A DNA stretch of 64,000 nucleotides, from contig CAVPOC010000006.1 of the NCBI GenBank assembly GCA_963706955.1, forward strand, positions 192,001-256,000, written 5' to 3'. This document shows positions 54,892 through 63,836 of this stretch, piece by piece. Below the pieces are notes generated by a model. The model was not told the origin of the DNA and did no database searches. It was given only the letters and a program-made list of their open reading frames with translations. Within the stretch, counting starts at the first letter, position 1; the number at the start of each line of letters is the position of its first letter. The DNA is from an uncultured Verrucomicrobiae bacterium. GTDB taxonomy: Bacteria > Verrucomicrobiota > Verrucomicrobiia > Chthoniobacterales > Terrimicrobiaceae. Position numbers and translations under genes: made by a program.

Positions 54892-54946
54892 AGCTGCCAA
54901 ACGGTTATTCTTTTTGCTGAAGCTGGCATCTAAGCGCACGCCTAGC

Positions 54947-55744
54947 CTACTCATCGGCGGCGAAGTTGAAGGCAGCGCGCAGATCGGTATCGGAAATATC
55001 CCAAAGCATTTCGTTGTGCCCGGATCCAGAGAGCCGCCAGAGCTTCTTTGGTCCCGAGTAAGATTCGAAGAGTCTGCGGGTGGACTCCGCCGGAATAATA
55101 GTGTCGTCATCTGCCATGATCACGGAGACCGGTCCGTGAAACTCTTGCAGAGCGCGTGATGATTGGTAGCGGTCCTTAAGAATAAGGCCGCTAGGAACGA
55201 CGGGATAATGTTTCCGCGCGACTGTCATGAGAGAATCAAAAGGTGCCAGAAGCACAAGTCCGGCAACGGACTCCTTCTTGCGCGCGGCGGCCTGACAGGC
55301 AACACCGCTCCCGAGAGATTCACCCAGGAGAACGATGCGTCTCGGCAGCAGGTCGATTGCCTCAAGGGCGGCGGCCACGAGCGAGCTTTCTGTCGGCGTT
55401 CCTTGGCGGGCGCCGTAACCGGGATATTCAAGAATGTAGATCGGGGAAGTGATGCCGGCCTTCCGCAAACGTGAGACCACCGCGCTGCGATGAAAAGCAT
55501 GTCCGGCGTTCCCGTGTAAGATGAGGATCGGAACTCCTCGACCTTCTTGAGTGTGCCAGCCAATGAAACTTTGATCGGCGTTGCGCCAAGGAACAAGGCC
55601 CTCGCGGGCGGCCAGAGACTCCAGAGTCTCGAATCGCGCATGTGAGGGATAGTAGATGAGGCTTCGTTGAAGCGCATAGGCGAGCAGTGTTGCCGCTCCC
55701 AACAAGACCAACACGACACCTGCGATCCGCGTGGCCATCTCCAT
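54947..55744 (-). CDS. Alpha/beta hydrolase (ABHD/YfhR-like) with N-terminal TM
   Basis: QRSLIYYP, LHGNAG, EYPGYG, GESLG, D..IP, GHN. Confidence 0.87.
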   Translation of the reverse strand: MEMATRIAGVVLVLLGAATLLAYALQRSLIYYPSHARFETLESLAAREGLVPWRNADQSFIGWHTQEGRGVPILILHGNAGHAFHRSAVVSRLRKAGITSPIYILEYPGYGARQGTPTESSLVAAALEAIDLLPRRIVLLGESLGSGVACQAAARKKESVAGLVLLAPFDSLMTVARKHYPVVPSGLILKDRYQSSRALQEFHGPVSVIMADDDTIIPAESTRRLFESYSGPKKLWRLSGSGHNEMLWDISDTDLRAAFNFAADE

Positions 55745-55910
55745 GGATAACGCTGGCGAAATCTCATGCCGGCGCAAGAGGTAAGCTCCTGTTACCAGGA
55801 CCCTCGATGTCCGTAGGAGTTTTTGCACGGCACTTCGGGCTTGATCCAGCGCCAAGCCTGGTCACGAAAGCTTGAAATCGGGCGTCCTTGCGGTAAAGGA
55901 AGGCGATCTG

Positions 55911-55947
55911 GCGCGATTAGCTCAGCGGTAGAGCGCCTGCTTCACAC
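55911..55947 (+). pseudogene. 5' half of host tRNA-Val(CAC); attL
   Basis: GCGCGAT-TA-GCTC-AGCGGTA-GAGC-G-CCTGC-TTCACAC, then unrelated sequence. Confidence 0.92.
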
Positions 55948-56305
55948 AGAGAAAACAGGGTATAGACGGAAGCGGACTATTGTGGACAATAGGTTAGGGG
56001 AGAAATGCTTAAAATTGATTTCCCGGCAGTTCCATAAATTTCAAAATGGACCAAAATAGCCTCAAATTTCCTTTGCCGGTGTAGACAACGGTATTGATAG
56101 GAAGAAGCCCTACGCTCCCATCTGCAAGAGCTGCCTCCACCGCTCGAATGACCCCTTTGAAGCCCCGGTTCATCGCCTCTTTGTAGCTTGCCCTTACCGA
56201 TGCCTCGACGTTGTGGCCGGACTTGTGCCGTGCTCAAGGCAGTATCGGAAAGAGCGCCGTGATTGGAAGAAGAAAACGGCGAAATCGGCGGATGAGACCT
56301 TAACG

Positions 56306-56818
56306 TCACTTCGTCGCAGCAGGCGGGGGCTGCGCTGGAGTTGTGTTGGCGATGACCATCCGCTTTTTCCAAACACCGCCGTCACGTACAGCTATCGATG
56401 CATGATGGCCCTTGGCATGTACGGGTTCCCCTCCCTTGGCTTGCCAAGTCATAGTCCATTCCCCGTTTTCCCATATCTCATTGCCATCGCCTATGGCGTG
56501 GGGAGAATTCGAATTCGGATCGTTGTACGTGGTGTGATTGTCGCTAAAATGCACATTTTGCATGACGTCTTTGTAATGCTTCTCGATTGCCTCCCGACCG
56601 TATATTGGTCCTGATGCCTCTATCAGAACAGCGTCATCCGTGTAGAGCGCAGCCAGAGCAGTGGCATCGTTGTTGTTCCATGCATCTTCGAATTTCTTAG
56701 CGAGTGCGAGAAGCGCCTCCCGTAGCTGTGGATCTGGGTTTTCAGTTTGTTGGGCAAGGGTCGGCCAAGCAAAGCTGATTGCCAGCCCTATAAGGGTAGT
56801 GACCAAGCGGATTTTCAT
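56306..56818 (-). CDS. Secreted NTF2-like (DUF4440/SnoaL-like) protein
   Basis: Signal peptide; F..AWN..DA.ALAALYT.DAV, G.EAI, W.NGEW, VRDGG.WK. Confidence 0.85.
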   Translation of the reverse strand: MKIRLVTTLIGLAISFAWPTLAQQTENPDPQLREALLALAKKFEDAWNNNDATALAALYTDDAVLIEASGPIYGREAIEKHYKDVMQNVHFSDNHTTYNDPNSNSPHAIGDGNEIWENGEWTMTWQAKGGEPVHAKGHHASIAVRDGGVWKKRMVIANTTPAQPPPAATK

Positions 56819-57135
56819 AGTCTTCTCCGGTGCTTAGGATGATTTGTCGTCTTACGTTGTCAGTGCCCTGAACGACGCTTCAAATGGATGCCTTGGATAT
56901 TCGGGTTCAATGAGAATCGCTCCAGCGAAAAGCGCCGGTGCGCTGAGGCCCGGATCTCTCACGAAATCTCGGTCAAGAGTTCCCCACCTCCTCAAGGTCT
57001 TTTTGCGCTGTGTCAAATGGCATCGAGAAGCCGCTGGGAATTCATATCGTGAAAATAGACGATGGTGGAGAAACGGCACAGGGGAATCTTTTACCTTGAA
57101 TGGTACTTTTGAGATTTTAGGGTATCCCGATCTTT

Positions 57136-57207
57136 GGACGCTTAGCTCAGCGGTAGAGCATCGCCTTCACACGGCGGGGGTCGTAGGTTCGAACCCTACA
57201 GCGTCCA
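57136..57207 (+). tRNA. tRNA-Val(CAC), island-encoded, intact
   Basis: Acceptor GGACGCT/AGCGTCC, D GCTC/GAGC, anticodon stem TCGCC/GGCGG with loop TTCACAC, T GTAGG-TTCGAAC-CCTAC, discriminator A; CCA not encoded. Confidence 0.95.
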
Positions 57208-58078
57208 CTTTAGTCGGTATCCGCCAAATTCCGGGTCTCCACCAAATTTTGGGGATGGGGTAGGTTTTTGGGGTTTGTTAGCCGCATTGAGCGATAACGC
57301 GAAGGCGGTAGTTGGAGAAGTTTTTAAAGCCGTAAGCTCGGCGTTGGATGAGTTTGATTTTGCGATGGAAGCCTTCAGTAATGCCGTTGTTTTTGGTAAA
57401 GCGCCACATGGCCGCCAAGGGTTCTCTCCAGCGCGATAAGGTGTCAGCCAAAGTCAACATCGAGGAGAAGCAACTGGCTTTGAGCTCAGCGATAAAATCC
57501 AGAAGTCTCTTAGCCAAAGGGCGGCAAGCACGCTTTGTTTGATGCTTAATATTCAAGAGGGCGCGCAGCCGATGCATGGCCTCATAGAGGGGTTGGAGAG
57601 CAGGGTATTTGGCAAAGAGGGCTTGGAGGCGCAGGCAATCAGTGGGCGCGAGGTTGTCCTCTCGTTTGCGCAGAGCCCCCAGGAAGCCGCGGTGGTTCTT
57701 GATTGTGGGGGCAATCTGGCGAGCTAACTCCAGGAAGTGCTGGGTGACAATGCGGATGACATGGAAGCGATCGGCAACGATCTTGGCTCTGGGAAAGTAA
57801 GAGGCAATCAGGCTGCGATAGGGACTGGAGAGATCGATGCAAACGACGCGCACCTTCTCTTTGCCTTGGAGGGCAGCCAGAAAGGAGCGCAGAGCGCTCG
57901 GAGATGCGTCCCGCAACGACGTCGAAGACGCGGTGGTTCTTCAGATCGCAGAAGGTGGTGGCAAAGCGCTGCCCTTTGTGCAGGGTGTGCTCGTCGATGC
58001 CGAGAACCTGAGGGCATTGCAGGCTCAAACGTTCTCTGGCCTGACGGGAAGTAAATTCCGCATAGATCCGCTCGACGG

Positions 58079-59504
58079 GGAAGTATCCGAAGTTTTGTGT
58101 TTAGGGTCAGTTTTGTTTTTCTTCGGTTGGCCTCGATTTTGCCACGCGCGGGAGCGCCCAGCAGTTCCCCCCGAGCCGCGGGGTTATGGGGGCGCGTAGC
58201 CCCCATTCCAAAGGCGTAAGCCTCATTTGTTAAATCTCTCCCCGAATTGGATGGCGAACTGGGTCGCGGCCGCTCTCCAAGTTACTGGTGGACTTTTCCA
58301 TCGTTTAGTGATGTTTCGCAAGGCCAGATAGATGAGCTTAGTGGCCGCCTCATCGCTGGGGAAGTGCCCCCGATTCTTAAGCACCTTGCGCAGCTGCATA
58401 TGCAAACTTTCAATGGCATTGGTCGTGTAAATGATTTTTCGCACCTCCGGAGCGAAACCGTAAAAGGGAATGATTTGTTCCCAGTTGCGGCGCCAGCTCT
58501 CGGCAATCATAGGATATTTTCTGTCCCAGGGCCCGGCTTCGAATTCCGCCAACCGCTTAGCGGCGGCCTCGGCGGTTTCGGCCCGGTAAATGGTCTTCAG
58601 TTCGCGAGCTAACGCCTGGCGCTCCTTCCAGCCGCAAAAGGAGAGGCAATAACGGCTTAAATGCACGATGCAGGTCTGCACGCTTGTCAGTGGGAAGACT
58701 GCGGCGATAGCCTCCGGAAAGCCCTTAAGCCCATCGATCACCGCGATTAGGATGTCCTCCACTCCGCGGTTTCGCAGCTCGTTCATGACCTTGAGCCAGA
58801 ACTTGGCTCCCTCGTTCTGTTCGATCCAAATGCCCAGGACATCCTTGGTCCCGTCCGCAGCGATGCCCAGGGCCAGATACACCGCTTTGTTCCTCACGCT
58901 TCCCTCATCGCGGATCTTCACTCGCAGCGCGTCGAAATAGACCACTGGATAGCTGCGCTCCAGAGGCCGATTCTGCCACTCGACAACCGCTTCCAGCACC
59001 GAATTGGTTACCGTGCTGATAAAGTCGGCGCTCACCTCCACCTTGTATTGATCAAGCAGAAAGCCCTGGATCTCACGCACTGTCATCCCGCGCGCATACA
59101 TCGCGATGATCTTCTCATCGAAGCCTTCAAAGCGCTTCTGTCCTTTAGCGATCAATAAGGGCTCAAAGCTCCCGCTCCGATCCCGGGGAACTTCGATTTT
59201 CATTGCTCCGTCTTCCCCAACCACTGTCTTCTCGCTGTAGCCGTTGCGATGGTTGTCGACCTCTTCGGGCGCTTCGCCTTTGGCGTAGCCAAGATGATGG
59301 GTGAGTTCCCCGGCAAGGGCTCTCTCCACAACGCGCTTCTTTAGTTGCGCGATCAGCCCGTTTTCTCCAAGGACCGCCTCCGCGCTGACGCCATGCTTCT
59401 CCAACAGCGCGTCGATCAAGTCGTCGCACTTCGTTTCCTTCTTCTCTTTGGTCATTTTCTTTTATCTCAGGCTATGACCCACACACAAACTTTCTGATAC
59501 CCTC
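58079..59504 (-). mobile_element. IS256-family element with 8-bp target duplication
   Basis: TSD CTCGACGG at 58071-58078 and 59505-59512; IRs GGAAGTATCCGAAGTTTTGTGT and GAGGGTATCAGAAAGTTTGTGT. Confidence 0.93.
58223..59455 (-). CDS. IS256 family transposase, intact
   Basis: RNGY, VPRDR, MYARGM..REI, DAL, DGLKGF, QTCIVH, YTTNAIES. Confidence 0.96.
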   Translation of the reverse strand: MTKEKKETKCDDLIDALLEKHGVSAEAVLGENGLIAQLKKRVVERALAGELTHHLGYAKGEAPEEVDNHRNGYSEKTVVGEDGAMKIEVPRDRSGSFEPLLIAKGQKRFEGFDEKIIAMYARGMTVREIQGFLLDQYKVEVSADFISTVTNSVLEAVVEWQNRPLERSYPVVYFDALRVKIRDEGSVRNKAVYLALGIAADGTKDVLGIWIEQNEGAKFWLKVMNELRNRGVEDILIAVIDGLKGFPEAIAAVFPLTSVQTCIVHLSRYCLSFCGWKERQALARELKTIYRAETAEAAAKRLAEFEAGPWDRKYPMIAESWRRNWEQIIPFYGFAPEVRKIIYTTNAIESLHMQLRKVLKNRGHFPSDEAATKLIYLALRNITKRWKSPPVTWRAAATQFAIQFGERFNK

Positions 59505-59934
59505 CTCGACGGTGGCGCTGCCCAGCTTCATGAGGCGCGCGAGAGCCGAGGCACAAATGCCTTCGTGATGCTGGCTATAGACCTTCTGTCGCCAGGGTTC
59601 GGTGCTGCGCTTCCAGGGCCGCAAACCGGGCGTCTCGGGCAGAAAGCTGCGACCGCATGCCCGGCACTCAAAGCGCCGGGTTTCGATATGAAGAAGGCTC
59701 GGCAACCCAAAGGAGTTTAGATGCCGAGCGCGCCGTCGATAACGCCCTTTAGCTACGATGCGGGGGCTGGCGCAGCACCGACAGCAATCGGGTTCCCTTT
59801 CCAGTTCCAAGTGCACGAGCACTTGCTTGTTGCTTTCGCTCCGCAAGACGCGGTAGCCTCTTAGTCCGATATCACACACAGGGGGCATGGTGGTCTTTCA
59901 TTGACCCCATGTCCCCACTTTTTGATGGAGAGCC

Positions 59935-61068
59935 TGAAAGCCCTCGGTGATGCCATTGTTTTTGGTGAAGCGCCACATGGCGGCGAGAGGTTCTCTCCAG
60001 GCCGACAAGGTTTGAGCGAGAGTAAGGAGCGAGGGGAAGGCACTGGCTTTAAGCTCATCGATAAAATCGAGGAGTTTCTTAGTGAGAGGACGGCAGGCGC
60101 GTTTTGTTTGATGTTTGAGGTTGAGGAGAGCGCGAAGTCGATGCATGGCGTCATAGAGGGGCGCGAGAGCAGGATATTTAGCAAAGAGCGCCCTGAGGCG
60201 CTGGCGGTCAATGGGCGAGAGGTTGTCCTGTCGTTTACGCAGGGCAGCCAGGGAGCCGCGATGGTTCGTGATAGGAGGGGCGATCTGACGGGCCAGCTCC
60301 AGGAAGTGTTGGATGACAATGCGGATGACATGGAAGCGATCGGCAACGATCTTGGCTCTGGGGAAATAGGAAGCAATCAGGCTGCGGTAGGGACTTGAGA
60401 GATCGATGCAAACCACGCGAACCTTGTCTCTGCCTTGGAGAGCGGCCAGAAAGGAGCGCAGATCCCTTGGACTGCGGCCGGCAACAATATCGAAGACCCG
60501 GTGGTTCTTAAGATCACAGAAGGTGGTGGCAAAACGTTGCCCCTTGTGAAGGGTGTGCTCGTCGATACCGAGAACCCGAGGGCATTGAAGACTCAAGCGT
60601 TCCCTGGCCTTGCGAGAGGTAAATTCCCCGTAGATGCGCTCCACGGTGGCGCTCCCCAGCTTCATAAGGCGCGCGAAAGCCGAGGCGCAAATGCCTTCAT
60701 GGTGCTGGATGTAGACCTTCTGCCGCCAGGGTTCGGTGCTGCGCTTCCAGGGCCGCAATCCGGGCGTCTCGGGAAGGAAACTGCGACCACAAGCCCGACA
60801 CTCAAAGCGCCGGGTCTCGATCTGAAGAAGGCTCGGTAAGCCAAAGGAATTTAGATGCCGAGCGCGCCGTCGGTAACGTCCTTTGGCGACAATGCGCGGG
60901 CTGGCACAGCACCGACAGCAATCGGGTTCCCTTTCCAGTTCCAAGTGCACGAGCACTTGCCGATTGCTTTCGCTCCGCAAGACGCGGTAGCCTCTTAGTC
61001 CGATATCACACACAGGGGGCATGGTGGTCTTTCATTGACCCCATGTCCCCACTTTTTGATGGAGAGCC
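59935..61068 (-). mobile_element. ISL3-family element (copy B), 3'-truncated; transposase starts at 61022
   Basis: Same left IR as copy A (ends 61068); the transposase breaks after NGITEGF exactly at the copy A IR. Confidence 0.88.
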
Positions 61069-61249
61069 CAACCACCGCTACGAACACCGTCTTGAAACAG
61101 TTTTACGAACCCGAGATTCGGGGCGGGATGGGGTTTCCGACTTTTTCGGCATACCCAACGGATTCTAGATCCTATCAGTCAATATTGCAAAAGTGCCTGA
61201 ATGGGATTTGCGGGTATCGTCTCGCCTTACGCACCTCCTTGTCATCTCA

Positions 61250-61408
61250 CTAATCACCCAACAACAATCTTGCTAACCCAAGGGTGATGGAAATGAGCAT
61301 GATAAGGGGTAGTAGGCACACAAACCAAGTGAAGATCCAGACAGCATTACAGAAAAACGTCAGGCAGATGTCCAGAATGTTATCATCATCATCTCTTCTG
61401 GTGTTCAT
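61250..61408 (-). CDS. Putative small membrane protein (52 aa)
   Basis: MNTRRDDDDNILDICLTFFCNAVWIFTWFVCLLPLIMLISITLGLARLLLGD; below the ORF-track cutoff. Confidence 0.4.
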   Translation of the reverse strand: MNTRRDDDDNILDICLTFFCNAVWIFTWFVCLLPLIMLISITLGLARLLLGD

Positions 61409-61782
61409 AGGGGGGAACGTCAGTTGATCATTTATTATTACTCTCCTCCCAAAAGGGCTTGCTGTCTCCCTCTTTTGACTCGGCCACTACATTGTGCCGA
61501 CAAGATCCTATCACAACTATAAACCCCGAGAGAAAAAAAGACACGTTCCGAATTGGCCAGAACCAACACCGGAAGCCCTTGCCTTGTTCAATGATCATGT
61601 AACTTTTGCGGACGTTTTAACCAACAAGTTTACGGGAAATCCTATCTTCCCTTCGGCTCTTACGCCTTCGAGGATTTAAGGCAGGAGATCCTCTTGCTGA
61701 TCTACAAGACAATAACCCTCATACTTCTCTCGATATCGGTGTCCCTTGCCGGAGGTAACAGAAAGGACGTCGTTTATTAACA

Positions 61783-61828
61783 CTGCTTCACACGCAGGAA
61801 GTCGCAGGTTCGAACCCTGCATCGCGCA
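61783..61828 (+). pseudogene. 3' half of host tRNA-Val(CAC); attR
   Basis: CTGCTTCACAC-GCAGG-AAGTC-GCAGG-TTCGAAC-CCTGC-ATCGCGC-A; ATCGCGC pairs with GCGCGAT at 55911. Confidence 0.92.
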
Positions 61829-61882
61829 GGTCTGTTTCACTAGTTCCACGCTGACGGAAGCAGCGAGAGCCGTTCACCTGAG

Positions 61883-62272
61883 TTAGTCTGCTTGGTTGCG
61901 TAGTGGCGCGAGTGGTGGAAGGAAGAAGCGGCGGGCAGCGAGAAGCCCCGCGAAGGCGGCGACGCCCAGGAGAATGTCGATGGTTGCCAACTCCGGCTTC
62001 AGCATTTTCCGCGCGACCACGAAAGCGAGAAGCTCCAATACCGCCATAAGGTCGTGGGTAACGAGAGTGCGAATCAGTTCCACGCTAATGACGAGCAACA
62101 GAGCTCGATAGATCAGCTCGTAGAAGGTTTCCGTCGTGCTCCAATCCATCTGAATCAGCGCGACGGTACTCTCGTAGGCGAAGGCAACGACACCCAGGAG
62201 AATCCCGAAAGCCAGCAGGCGTTCGAGTCCAGTCGCGAGCCTCTTGGCAGACCGAATTACGAGGTCATTCAT
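61883..62272 (-). CDS. PsiE-like membrane protein
   Basis: Three to four TM helices; LLLVISVELIRTL, E.....VARKML. Confidence 0.7.
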   Translation of the reverse strand: MNDLVIRSAKRLATGLERLLAFGILLGVVAFAYESTVALIQMDWSTTETFYELIYRALLLVISVELIRTLVTHDLMAVLELLAFVVARKMLKPELATIDILLGVAAFAGLLAARRFFLPPLAPLRNQAD

Positions 62273-62494
62273 GCAAATGTAACGGGCAGTCTATGGCGGT
62301 CCAGTAACGCCGCGCGAGTGTTTTGTGAAGGCTCCGAAATGGCCGGCGGATGCACGCCGCGGGCCGGCTCTTCCCCTTCGCGCGTGGCACTTTGGGACTT
62401 AGAAAACCTTCCGAATGGGAAAATCGAAGGCGACGAAAAGCGCAGACAAGTTTGGCCGGGCCCAATCGAAGGATCGGAGTCGCGCCGTCGGTCT

Positions 62495-62692
62495 CTATCC
62501 GCCTGCGGCCACGTTTAAGATCTCGATCTCGTCACCGTCGGAGAGTGCAGTCTGCGGCCACTCAGAGCGCAACAGCGCCACCCCGTTGTGTTCCACCAAA
62601 ATTGCTTCACGGACGAGCGCAAGCTTATTTACCAAATCGTCAACATTTTTGGAGTTAACAGATTCATTTTGGCCATTTAGGACGATTTCCAT
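62495..62692 (-). CDS. thiS: Sulfur carrier protein ThiS
   Basis: MEIVLNG, VEHNG, L.DGD.IEI, C-terminal GG; adjacent to thiH. Confidence 0.93.
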   Translation of the reverse strand: MEIVLNGQNESVNSKNVDDLVNKLALVREAILVEHNGVALLRSEWPQTALSDGDEIEILNVAAGG

Positions 62693-62723
62693 GGATCGCG
62701 TAGCAGGCGAAGGGGGGCCACGC

Positions 62724-63836
62724 TCAGGCCGCATTTAGGATGGCGGCATCCCAATCCTTCCAGACCGGTTCGAGGCCCAATTCGCGCAAACGGGAGGCAA
62801 CCACATCGGGTGGTCGGTTGTCTGAAACGGCAAATTGACCCTCGGCGAGCTCTCCAGCAGCGGCGACTTGGCGGCCGCGCGTTGTATGGTGCAGGTTTCG
62901 TTTTCCCTGGCCCGTGTAACCACCCGGCTCAGTGTGACTGCCGGCGCTCATCATGGTAACACCCAAGGGCGCTACGGTATCGCGCAAGGCTGGGGACTCG
63001 CGCGTGCTGAGGACGATCCCGATTTGCGGAAAGGTCATTCGCAGGGCGCAGAGCACTTGAATGAATTCACGGTCCGGCAGGGGATGTGTCGGATGGAAAT
63101 CGCCCGCGGCCGGGCGCAGCCGCGGCAGGCTGACAGTAATCTGCGCTTTCCAGCACTTACGCAAAAGGTATTCAAGATGTGCCGCGAGAGCTACGGCCTC
63201 CTCCCGCCAGTGCCACAGCCCGAAGAGCGCGCCGATCCCAATGCGCCGAAAGCCCGCCTGATAAGCGCGTTCGGCGCAGTCAAGCCGCCAGTCGAAGTTC
63301 TTCTTGGGTCCGGCAAGATGCATTTTCGCATATGTCGGAGGATGGTACGTCTCCTGATAGACAAGGAGTCCTTCGGCGCCCGCACGAACAAGGGGCACAT
63401 AATCGGCGACCTCCATCGGGGCGACCTCAAGACTTAGACTCGGGACCATCGGCGAGAGGCGGCGAATGCACCGCCTGAGATAATCGCCTGAGACGAACTT
63501 GGGATGCTCACCCGCAACCAGCAGAATATTCCGAAATCCCTGATTCAAAATATGGACTGCCTCGGTCGCGACCTCTTCAATTTCGAGAGTTACACGGAGA
63601 ATGGCATTTTCCCGGGAGAATCCGCAGTAGGCGCAGGAATTGATGCATTCGTTAGAGAGATAAAGTGGAGCAAACATGCGCATCGTGCGGCCGAAGTAGC
63701 GTCGGGTGATGGCGGCGGATTCGCGGGCGAGCAGCTCGAGTTCGGCATCCGAACGCGGAGAGAGGAGAGCATCGAATTTCTCCAGGATCGGCGACCTGTC
63801 TTTAATCCGGTTCACTAGTTCAGAAGAGAATGGCAT
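62724..63836 (-). CDS. thiH: 2-iminoacetate synthase (radical SAM)
   Basis: FAPLYLSNECINSCAYCGFS, YQETY, GALFGL, S.PRLRP, STRE, SAGS.T.PGGY, PVWKDWD. Confidence 0.96.
   Translation of the reverse strand: MPFSSELVNRIKDRSPILEKFDALLSPRSDAELELLARESAAITRRYFGRTMRMFAPLYLSNECINSCAYCGFSRENAILRVTLEIEEVATEAVHILNQGFRNILLVAGEHPKFVSGDYLRRCIRRLSPMVPSLSLEVAPMEVADYVPLVRAGAEGLLVYQETYHPPTYAKMHLAGPKKNFDWRLDCAERAYQAGFRRIGIGALFGLWHWREEAVALAAHLEYLLRKCWKAQITVSLPRLRPAAGDFHPTHPLPDREFIQVLCALRMTFPQIGIVLSTRESPALRDTVAPLGVTMMSAGSHTEPGGYTGQGKRNLHHTTRGRQVAAAGELAEGQFAVSDNRPPDVVASRLRELGLEPVWKDWDAAILNAA

Follow-up and report, generated by a model that had tools for sequence, protein, structure and literature searches.

What becomes of a host tRNA gene when an element integrates into it and does not rebuild it? 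The question is raised by a 64-kb stretch of DNA (the window) from the assembly of an uncultured Verrucomicrobiae bacterium (G000, 92.5% complete), in which the native tRNA-Val(CAC) gene is split by an insert of 5,835 bp. The insert (the island; 55948–61782, or C6:247948–253782 in contig coordinates) begins after tRNA position 37, at the end of the anticodon loop, and it carries an intact tRNA-Val(CAC) of its own. The explanation that we favor, and that we consider probable rather than certain, is that a decayed site-specific element recombined with the tRNA-Val(CAC) gene through approximately 11 bp, and that the host tRNA, which was not rebuilt, has been replaced by the tRNA of the island.

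The host tRNA-Val(CAC) gene is split at the end of its anticodon loop

The remains of the host gene lie on either side of the island:

55911–55947, plus strand: 5′ half of the native tRNA-Val(CAC), positions 1–37 through the anticodon loop; 100% identical to positions 1–37 of the intact tRNA of relatives
55937–55947, plus strand: left 11-bp repeat, CTGCTTCACAC, made up of 4 nucleotides (nt) of the anticodon-stem 5′ strand and the 7-nt loop
61783–61828, plus strand: right 11-bp repeat (61783–61793) and 3′ half of the native tRNA; 100% identical to positions 27–72 of the intact tRNA

The 5′ half, which still adjoins the native upstream flank, consists of the 5′ strand of the acceptor stem, the D arm, the 5′ strand of the anticodon stem, and the loop TTCACAC. 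After CTGCTTCACAC, the 3′ half continues with the 3′ strand of the anticodon stem, the variable loop, the T arm, and the 3′ strand of the acceptor stem. These two pieces and the core that they share had been read from the sequence in the original prediction, and we recovered them at the positions claimed. An 11-bp repeat is unremarkable by itself in 6 kb, a length that here contains at least 60 families of direct repeats. When the two halves are joined at the repeat, however, the product is 72/72 identical to the intact tRNA-Val(CAC) of the relative G007, a match far beyond chance, and we regard the comparative evidence as decisive.

Neither junction is a complete tRNA, as had been predicted. 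ARAGORN made a single tRNA call in the whole window, Val(cac) at 57136–57208, and none at either junction, and a search of 55500–62300 with Rfam/Infernal (E ≤ 1) returned the island tRNA alone, with no junction scoring as a tRNA. The gene is thus broken on both sides of the island, with a direct repeat of 11 bp.

Relatives carry the intact gene at the same site

We compared the flanks of the island with those of 40 relatives. In G007, the nearest of these (flanks 94% identical), the two sides of the site are contiguous: C186:2889–3937 corresponds to window positions 54900–55947 and C186:1873–2899 to window positions 61783–62800, and the two matches overlap by exactly 11 bp. ARAGORN called an intact host-type tRNA-Val(cac) at eight of the nine empty-site loci within the genus (G007 and seven others), the ninth (G015) running into a contig end, and a full-length host-type tRNA of at least 97% identity was present in 13 of the 18 other genomes of the genus, one per genome. 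The empty site with its intact tRNA places the host attachment site (attB) over a tRNA gene, and the proposal of a true insertion into a native tRNA was confirmed, as relatives hold the unbroken tRNA between the same flanks.

The left junction is bridged by an independent contig of 1,312 nt from a public run, which lies on 55554–56863, and the left junction of a second metagenome-assembled genome (MAG), G001, is identical to that of the window; misassembly is therefore unlikely. Contigs at the right junction (61280–61812 and 61143–61812) end 30 nt past the island edge, against a bridging criterion of 31 letters. In two public runs from different studies, 30/30 and 29/30 bins of the interval were covered.

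These observations bear on the notion that the locus is an artifact of chimeric assembly or a structure of another kind, whether an intron (group I or group II) lodged in the anticodon loop or a split tRNA gene that still functions. Group I introns of bacteria are indeed known from tRNA anticodon loops. A chimera is contradicted by the independent contig across the left junction and by the same junction in the independent MAG, and the duplicated 11 bp fits recombination, not splicing. The intron was rejected as a candidate, with no Rfam intron family in 55500–62300 at E ≤ 1, and so was the split gene, with no complementarity between the DNA after the 5′ half and the DNA before the 3′ half. We consider explanations of this kind exceedingly improbable.

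A related island lies at the same nucleotide in a second species

In G001, which belongs to the same genus, the hydrolase gene that precedes the site is followed by the host tRNA 5′ half (L024:6001–6037), and the left arm of an island starts exactly after the CACAC of that half. This island is approximately 2.6 kb long, is free of any insertion sequence (IS), and contains, in order, the left arm, a 413-aa open reading frame (ORF), a 39-aa ORF, and an island-type tRNA-Val(cac). An MsrAB gene is the first point at which synteny with relatives returns, which indicates that the tRNA 3′ half and its neighboring gene have been deleted from G001. The segments that the two islands have in common are, in window coordinates, as follows:

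55948–56224, no strand: conserved non-coding left arm; 82% identical over 277 bp to the G001 island
56965–57135, no strand: conserved region upstream of the island tRNA; 80% identical (133/167) to G001
57136–57207, plus strand: intact tRNA-Val(CAC) borne by the island; ARAGORN, and Rfam RF00005 with 68.2 bits

The left arm contains a small palindrome and two direct copies of the motif GGTRTAGAC (55959–55967 and 56078–56086). This motif occurs twice in the window, against an expectation of 0.16, and three times in the G001 locus, against an expectation of 0.05. The repeats are possible candidates for arm-type recombinase sites; as direct repeats conserved in both left arms, they would fit such binding sites, and we counted them in favor of site-specific integration.

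Three lines of evidence indicate that the two islands did not descend from one insertion. First, in a tree of the hydrolase alone, G000 pairs with the empty-site genome G007 (94/95) and G001 with the empty-site genome G004 (96/93), and two further empty-site genomes (G016 and G017) are also nearer to G000 than G001 is. Second, the islands are more alike than their hosts. At four-fold sites in three flanking genes, G000 and G001 agree at 58/143, 45/110, and 77/179 positions (0.41, 0.41, and 0.43), compared with 0.87–0.91 for G000 and G007, so that the neutral divergence of the two hosts is near saturation. Exactly at the junction, identity leaps: it is 63% in the intergenic DNA of the hosts, 91% and 86% in segments of the non-coding arm, 80% in the region upstream of the tRNA, and 97% in the island tRNA. 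Third, the orphan halves in G000 carry no substitutions, and the half in G001 carries two changes that disrupt the anticodon stem; by a rough inference from the 9%–13% four-fold divergence between G000 and G007, an old break in G000 should show several changes. Taken together, this evidence points to the independent entry of two related elements into the same tRNA nucleotide in two non-sister species. Repeated insertion at one nucleotide, in independent hosts and with direct repeats of the target, is the mark of site-specific recombination rather than of a one-off accident.

An accident of that kind would have been a single transposition or illegitimate recombination with a target duplication of 11 bp, after which homologous recombination carried the locus from one species to another; we consider it a very improbable source of the two islands. 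The 11-bp direct repeat could be a target-site duplication, and transposases are present in the island of the window, but neither end of the island is the end of an IS, and the two ends are not paired by terminal inverted repeats with a cognate transposase. Moreover, the left end in G001 is identical in the absence of any IS, the duplications made by ISL3 elements are 8 bp long, and the breakpoint in the tRNA is shared by other elements of the family. As for the spread, identity falls to 63%–71% immediately outside the tRNA half, indicating that the flanks were not co-transferred.

The island tRNA appears to be under selection and to come from another genus

The islands in the window and in G001 both carry a Val(cac) tRNA, cognate to the gene that they break. 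The two tRNAs are 70/72 identical, and a compensatory base-pair change sets their acceptor stems apart (GGACGCT/AGCGTCC vs. GGGCGCT/AGCGCCC), which argues for selection on the island tRNA to remain functional. The conserved region upstream of it, 56965–57135, includes the frameshifted remnant of a small minus-strand ORF that is intact in G001 (the 39-aa ORF). Within the conserved DNA, a promoter-like TTGAAY-16 nt-TAGGGT, read by eye, ends 12 nt before the tRNA, and on the strength of its conservation we regard it as a putative promoter from which the tRNA may be expressed. In the public RNA runs, which are available in the form of contigs, only 6%–15% of the words sampled were present.

In its anticodon stem (TCGCC/GGCGG) and T stem (GTAGG/CCTAC), the island tRNA is unlike the host type and like the tRNAs of other genera in the family. 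Matches of at least 94% were found in 15 of 101 other genomes of the family, the best being in G058 (genus g30; 70/72, with the same acceptor stem), compared with approximately 82% identity to the host type. In G019, G022, and G023, the island-type tRNA stands in ordinary chromosomal surroundings. By sequence similarity, the island tRNA thus looks to have been captured from a related genus.

The two lineages of tRNA-Val(CAC) are distributed patchily over the 16 genera that make up the family. The host type alone is present in most genomes of g1, g3, g4, and g7, and the island type alone in G019 (g2), G023 (g6), G046 (g24), G058 (g30), and four of the six g5 genomes. Three genomes (G055, G060, and G074) have both types.

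The island tRNA is the sole Val(CAC) that we found in the G000 assembly with ARAGORN (39 tRNAs), Infernal (37 tRNAs), and a pattern search, so that the whole-assembly scan supported the prediction of a second, intact tRNA with this anticodon. The assembly visibly lacks other tRNAs, for example, Val(GAC) and Cys, which makes it less than certain that no second copy of Val(CAC) exists. Two calls from the same scans lie elsewhere: an ARAGORN tRNA at C9:102403–102484 on the minus strand, to which no type was assigned and whose anticodon has two bases, “(ca)” (37.6 bits in Infernal), and a tRNA-SeC at C6:88568–88659, outside the window.

It had also been suggested that the host could come to depend on the element for this isoacceptor, and the evidence bearing on that suggestion points both ways. 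The host-type gene is single-copy in near-complete relatives, and no other Val(CAC) was found in G000. In a crude collection of 836 long ORFs, 31% of the valine codons are GTG. As a tRNA-Val(UAC) gene is present in G000, the broken tRNA-Val(CAC) was probably not essential; and G013, which is 96% complete, has two Val(GAC) genes and no Val(CAC) of either type by BLAST and pattern search.

Other contents of the island and its neighbors

Apart from the segments shared with G001, the island contains the following features:

56306–56818, minus strand: cargo gene, DUF4440/SnoaL-like, with a signal-peptide-like N terminus (Pfam PF14534, E 2.4e-16)
57226–61069, minus strand: IS nest, made up of ISL3 copy 1 with a nested IS256-family element, followed by ISL3 copy 2
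57226–59937, minus strand: ISL3-family IS copy 1, interrupted; DDE_Tnp_ISL3 and Zn_ribbon_ISL3 (Pfam) on two ORF pieces
58079–59504, minus strand: IS256-family (Mutator-type) IS inside ISL3 copy 1 (Pfam PF00872, E 4e-122)
59935–61069, minus strand: ISL3-family IS copy 2, lacking its tRNA-proximal end; 374-aa transposase ORF at 59898–61022
61070–61782, no strand: right part, 713 bp, unique and with no recognizable gene; no Pfam or PHROG match on its small ORFs

Approximately two-thirds of the island is IS DNA, and 1,278 + 713 bp remain when this is set aside. The DUF4440/SnoaL-like gene is missing from the G001 island, where the 413-aa ORF, which is tail-fiber-like, stands instead. The inverted repeat of ISL3 copy 1 begins 25 nt past the discriminator base of the island tRNA, and this copy is 98.6%–99.8% identical to C8:580251–581528. 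The transposase of the IS256-family element occupies 58223–59455, and the boundaries of the element were taken from the break in the ISL3 matches. The flanks of the nest, CAAATTCC and CAACCACC, form no target duplication, which makes a rearrangement at the nest likely. The right part had no match in the 40 relatives and shows no significant similarity to the right part of the G001 island; an apparent colinearity of the right parts across the nest, seen by eye, was too weak and was not used.

The genes on either side had been named as a hydrolase and psiE. Pfam identifies the left neighbor as an alpha/beta hydrolase, but the right neighbor, an ORF on the minus strand at 61883–62272, had no Pfam match at E ≤ 0.01, and the name psiE is unverified. 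Homologues of this ORF are located elsewhere in G013, G006, and G009.

The anticodon loop of tRNA-Val(CAC) is used by integrative elements in the family

Lone 5′ halves of the host-type tRNA (positions 1–37 or 1–38) were found in seven other genomes of the family. In four of these (G055, G103, G089, and G043), the half runs into non-tRNA DNA at the breakpoint of the window, and in the other three it lies at a contig end. The clearest case is G055 (L041, G055:C11, 5024–10279), in which a 37-nt repeat of the 5′ half lies 5.1 kb upstream of a complete tRNA. The genes between the two encode a BglII-like endonuclease, an MT-A70 methylase, a Rep protein, an HTH_17 protein, and a tyrosine integrase (PF00589, E 3e-7), the last of which starts 91 bp upstream of the rebuilt tRNA and is divergent from it. 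This duplication of the 5′ half with an upstream integrase is the mirror image of the usual 3′-half arrangement. Elements at three loci in other genera (L042, L043, and L044) also target the same position of tRNA-Val(CAC). The lone 5′ halves and the integrase-bearing island of G055 indicate, from comparison of their sequences, that integrases in this family make use of the anticodon loop of tRNA-Val(CAC). Elements of the G055 type carry their homology on the 5′ side, the side on which the G000 repeat reaches past the loop (CTGC); in all other sequence, the G055 element and the island of the window are unrelated.

The evidence against our preferred explanation, a site-specific element that recombined through a short core, begins with the recombinase. 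Among ORFs of at least 50 aa in the island of the window, we found no Pfam recombinase beyond the IS transposases, and a six-frame search of C6:247948–253782 with PF00589 (E ≤ 1) gave no match. The G001 island likewise lacks an integrase, and the best tblastn hit of the G055 integrase against the two islands had E = 1, very permissive settings returning only noise. Neither an attP (the attachment site of the element), a free element, nor a third copy was seen, the left arm occurring in 2 of 102 genomes of the family. Four exact patterns, in seven scans of contig collections, had no match in metagenome or viral contigs, and the only one of these scans made on genome contigs matched G001 alone; exact-pattern scans are insensitive, and this result is weak evidence of rarity. 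Evidence of phage ancestry is thin: a PHROG search of the island in the window gave no phage match, and the 413-aa ORF of G001 had weak matches to a family of unknown function (E 7.5e-12) and to a tail protein (E 7.5e-5). A consensus promoter scan called nothing upstream of the island tRNA. As the right junction of G001 is deleted, the 11-bp core rests on a single pair of junctions. In three of four runs, there were joints that skip 5,846 letters and so show an uninterrupted tRNA, with only 26–27 letters on the shorter side. Such short overlaps say nothing on excision; the contigs, which probably come from relatives with an identical tRNA, cannot be assigned to this strain and were not used.

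The main rival holds that the element once rebuilt the tRNA with a 37-nt 5′ half, and that a later deletion removed positions 1–26 and left 11 bp; the island tRNA would then have made the loss tolerable and would not have been part of the integration design. Four members of the family show 5′-half repeats with the same break position and polarity, the G000 repeat exceeds the loop on the 5′ side only, the tRNA of G055 is rebuilt at the right junction beside an integrase, and the islands have been rearranged (the IS nest lacks a target duplication, and the right side of G001 is deleted). Such a deletion would, however, have had to end within the 37-nt target, 713 bp from the nearest IS end, and the 26 nt to the left of the right repeat hold no trace of the 5′ half (5/26 matches by eye). 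In addition, both islands have a cognate tRNA with conserved upstream DNA, as in the published short-core design, and 11 bp falls within the core range of 8–17 bp given in Table 2 of PMC10865867. We judge this history unlikely, while giving it a real chance of being correct.

The absence of a recombinase could also mean that there never was one: the element may always have been a small (approximately 2–2.6 kb) cassette of arms, one cargo gene, and a tRNA, moved in trans by the integrase of another element that targets the same tRNA-Val(CAC) site. The IS-free islands are indeed small (1,278 + 713 bp in the window and approximately 2.6 kb in G001), neither has a recombinase, two independent insertions happened, and elements that encode an integrase and share the crossover point occur in the family; the strong conservation of the non-coding left arm, with its repeated motifs, also agrees with this idea. 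A helper is harder to find. A six-frame search of the whole G000 genome with PF00589 gave seven integrase-type genes above the cutoff and three weak ones, none inside the island. No candidate helper was identified in G000, where the closest relative of the G055 integrase has 33% identity to it over 114 aa. In sequence, the G055-type elements have arms that bear no relation to the island, and the missing target duplication at the IS nest, together with the deletion in G001, leaves room for the loss of an integrase gene. We therefore consider the cassette doubtful. If it existed, it would break a resident gene, install a foreign paralogue, and entrench itself, and repeated events of this kind would explain the patchy distribution of the two tRNA-Val(CAC) lineages across genera. 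One of the ORFs with a tyrosine-integrase domain in G000 (441 aa; C8:1031795–1032193, minus strand) lies approximately 0.8 kb from tRNA-Leu(taa) (c[1033018,1033102]) and may mark another integrative element in this genome.

According to the explanation that we prefer, the anticodon loop of the single-copy tRNA-Val(CAC) of the host would have recombined with a site-specific integrative element, whose recombinase was most likely a tyrosine integrase and which may derive from a phage. Element and site would have had approximately 11 bp in common, the 7-nt loop and 4 nt on its 5′ side, too little for the tRNA to be rebuilt at either junction. The tRNA-Val(CAC) of the element, with its conserved upstream region, would supply the isoacceptor in place of the broken gene, and it would come from a lineage that other genera of the family have as their normal chromosomal Val(CAC). 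The integration machinery would later have been lost, perhaps through rearrangements of the kind seen in both islands; ISL3 and IS256 elements, homing to tRNA 3′ flanks, would then have filled the island, and the two events together would have fixed the replacement in place. The original prediction had spoken of a relic element and of an integration strategy. The first term agrees with the lack of an integrase in Pfam and PF00589 searches of the island. Of the second, the failure to rebuild the tRNA at the junctions stands, but the short-core attP is a supposition, as neither an attP nor an integrase was seen.

ISL3-family elements lie downstream of tRNA genes in G000

At all four loci in G000 with a full-length copy, an ISL3-family IS lies just downstream of a tRNA gene and in the same orientation (window 57226–61069, C8:580251–582737, C8:1005758–1007028, and C3:568871–570141). 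The inverted repeat starts 25, 57, 71, and 20 nt after the discriminator bases of the Val-CAC, Arg-CCG, Phe, and Ala-GGC tRNAs, respectively. With 39 tRNA genes in 4.16 Mb, this placement is far from random, and we found no paper that combines “ISL3” with “downstream of tRNA”. The lone copy beside tRNA-Phe has a perfect 8-bp duplication. Head-to-tail pairs occur at two of the loci (C8:581490–581570 and window 59935–59938); in each, the second copy lacks the tRNA-proximal end and is cut at a different internal point, which suggests self-targeting or recurrent rearrangement. A related IS lies 7 nt after the tRNA-Val(CAC) of G058 (L046, G058:C500). Between that tRNA (c[150,221]) and the main part of the ISL3-like element downstream of it, a 17-nt unit, GGCTCTCCACCAAACAA, which is the IS terminal repeat, occurs five times in tandem.

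Comparison with known systems

In the parts of their paper to which we refer, Guerrero-Bustamante and Hatfull (mBio 2024, PMC10865867) describe tRNA-dependent lysogeny in mycobacteriophage Fionnbharth and other actinobacteriophages, naming Fionnbharth, LeBron, Gaia, and BrutonGaster. With cores of 8–17 bp, these phages fail to rebuild the tRNA and carry a cognate one; related phages at the same attB rebuild it with 38–52 matching bp. The tRNA of the phage is nearest to the tRNAs of other mycobacterial species (section 6), and Lj965 of Lactobacillus johnsonii is presented as a likely further case (section 11). The paper asks whether tRNA-dependent integration exists beyond the actinobacteriophages. 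Host tRNAs substituted by element-borne tRNAs are also reported in the relevant portion of a study of Sinorhizobium (PMC11476347), and a later paper from the same group, in the portion cited here, finds no such feature in phiLM21-like prophages (PMC12429752). In the literature, judged by title and abstract, we found nothing on a Verrucomicrobia prophage at a tRNA-gene attB.

The original prediction proposed a “break and replace” strategy. The broken host tRNA and the cognate tRNA of the element agree with that description, but the strategy is not novel, having been published already, as the cited parts of PMC10865867 attest. The locus extends the pattern of tRNA-dependent integration to uncultured soil Verrucomicrobiae, and it may represent an end state, in which the integrase is gone, the element is unable to leave, and a foreign tRNA is the only Val(CAC) found in the assembly. 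One attB appears to have two outcomes: elements of the G055 type, with a 37-nt repeat and an integrase, rebuild the tRNA, and those of the G000/G001 type, with an 11-bp repeat and their own tRNA, do not. This contrast mirrors that between Boilgate and Fionnbharth in the mycobacteriophages, as outlined in PMC10865867. An end state of the kind just described would be a concrete route by which mobile elements swap conserved tRNA genes for the paralogues of other genera.

Classical tRNA-targeting elements, including those with an anticodon-loop sublocation, were reportedly treated by Williams in 2002. Like classical elements of the anticodon-loop type, of which G055 provides an example, the locus has its crossover in the 7-nt loop and an island bounded by a direct repeat of the tRNA. 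Unlike classical elements, in which a long tRNA segment in attP restores the gene, element and target here share only 11 bp.

The likeness to the actinobacteriophages, as far as the cited parts of PMC10865867 describe them, extends to several features. The attB overlaps a tRNA gene, and the core is short (8–17 bp in the phages and 11 bp here); a tRNA of identical anticodon is present on the element, together with an upstream region of its own; that tRNA is nearest to those of other species (88% in the phages; here, 70/72 to g30 compared with approximately 82% to the host type); and the attB is shared with sister elements that restore the tRNA. The differences are that the island has no integrase or clear phage genes, that its host belongs to the Verrucomicrobiae, and that it is known here from sequence alone. 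In the reconstructing phages of the same account, the homology lies in the 3′ half, whereas the residual homology here is on the 5′ side of the crossover. The tRNA is required for viability in the actinobacteriophage systems described there, whereas Val(CAC) is probably non-essential here. The locus also resembles Lj965 and the phage-related sequences of Sinorhizobium meliloti, as these are portrayed in the passages cited, in having an unrebuilt target tRNA and a cognate tRNA that resembles those of other taxa; those elements are, however, recognizable prophages with integrases, unlike the island of the window.

Among the features of tRNA-dependent lysogeny, we observed a tRNA attB, a short repeat that does not rebuild the gene, and a cognate tRNA, and we observed no element-encoded tyrosine integrase. 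The functional claims made for the locus rest on sequence comparison, and they do not amount to a new principle. We conclude that the locus appears to work like, and probably descends from, an element of the tRNA-dependent-lysogeny type, but we do not class it as one in the full sense. The principle had been published before, and the present case extends it to the Verrucomicrobiae in the form of a relic without a recombinase.

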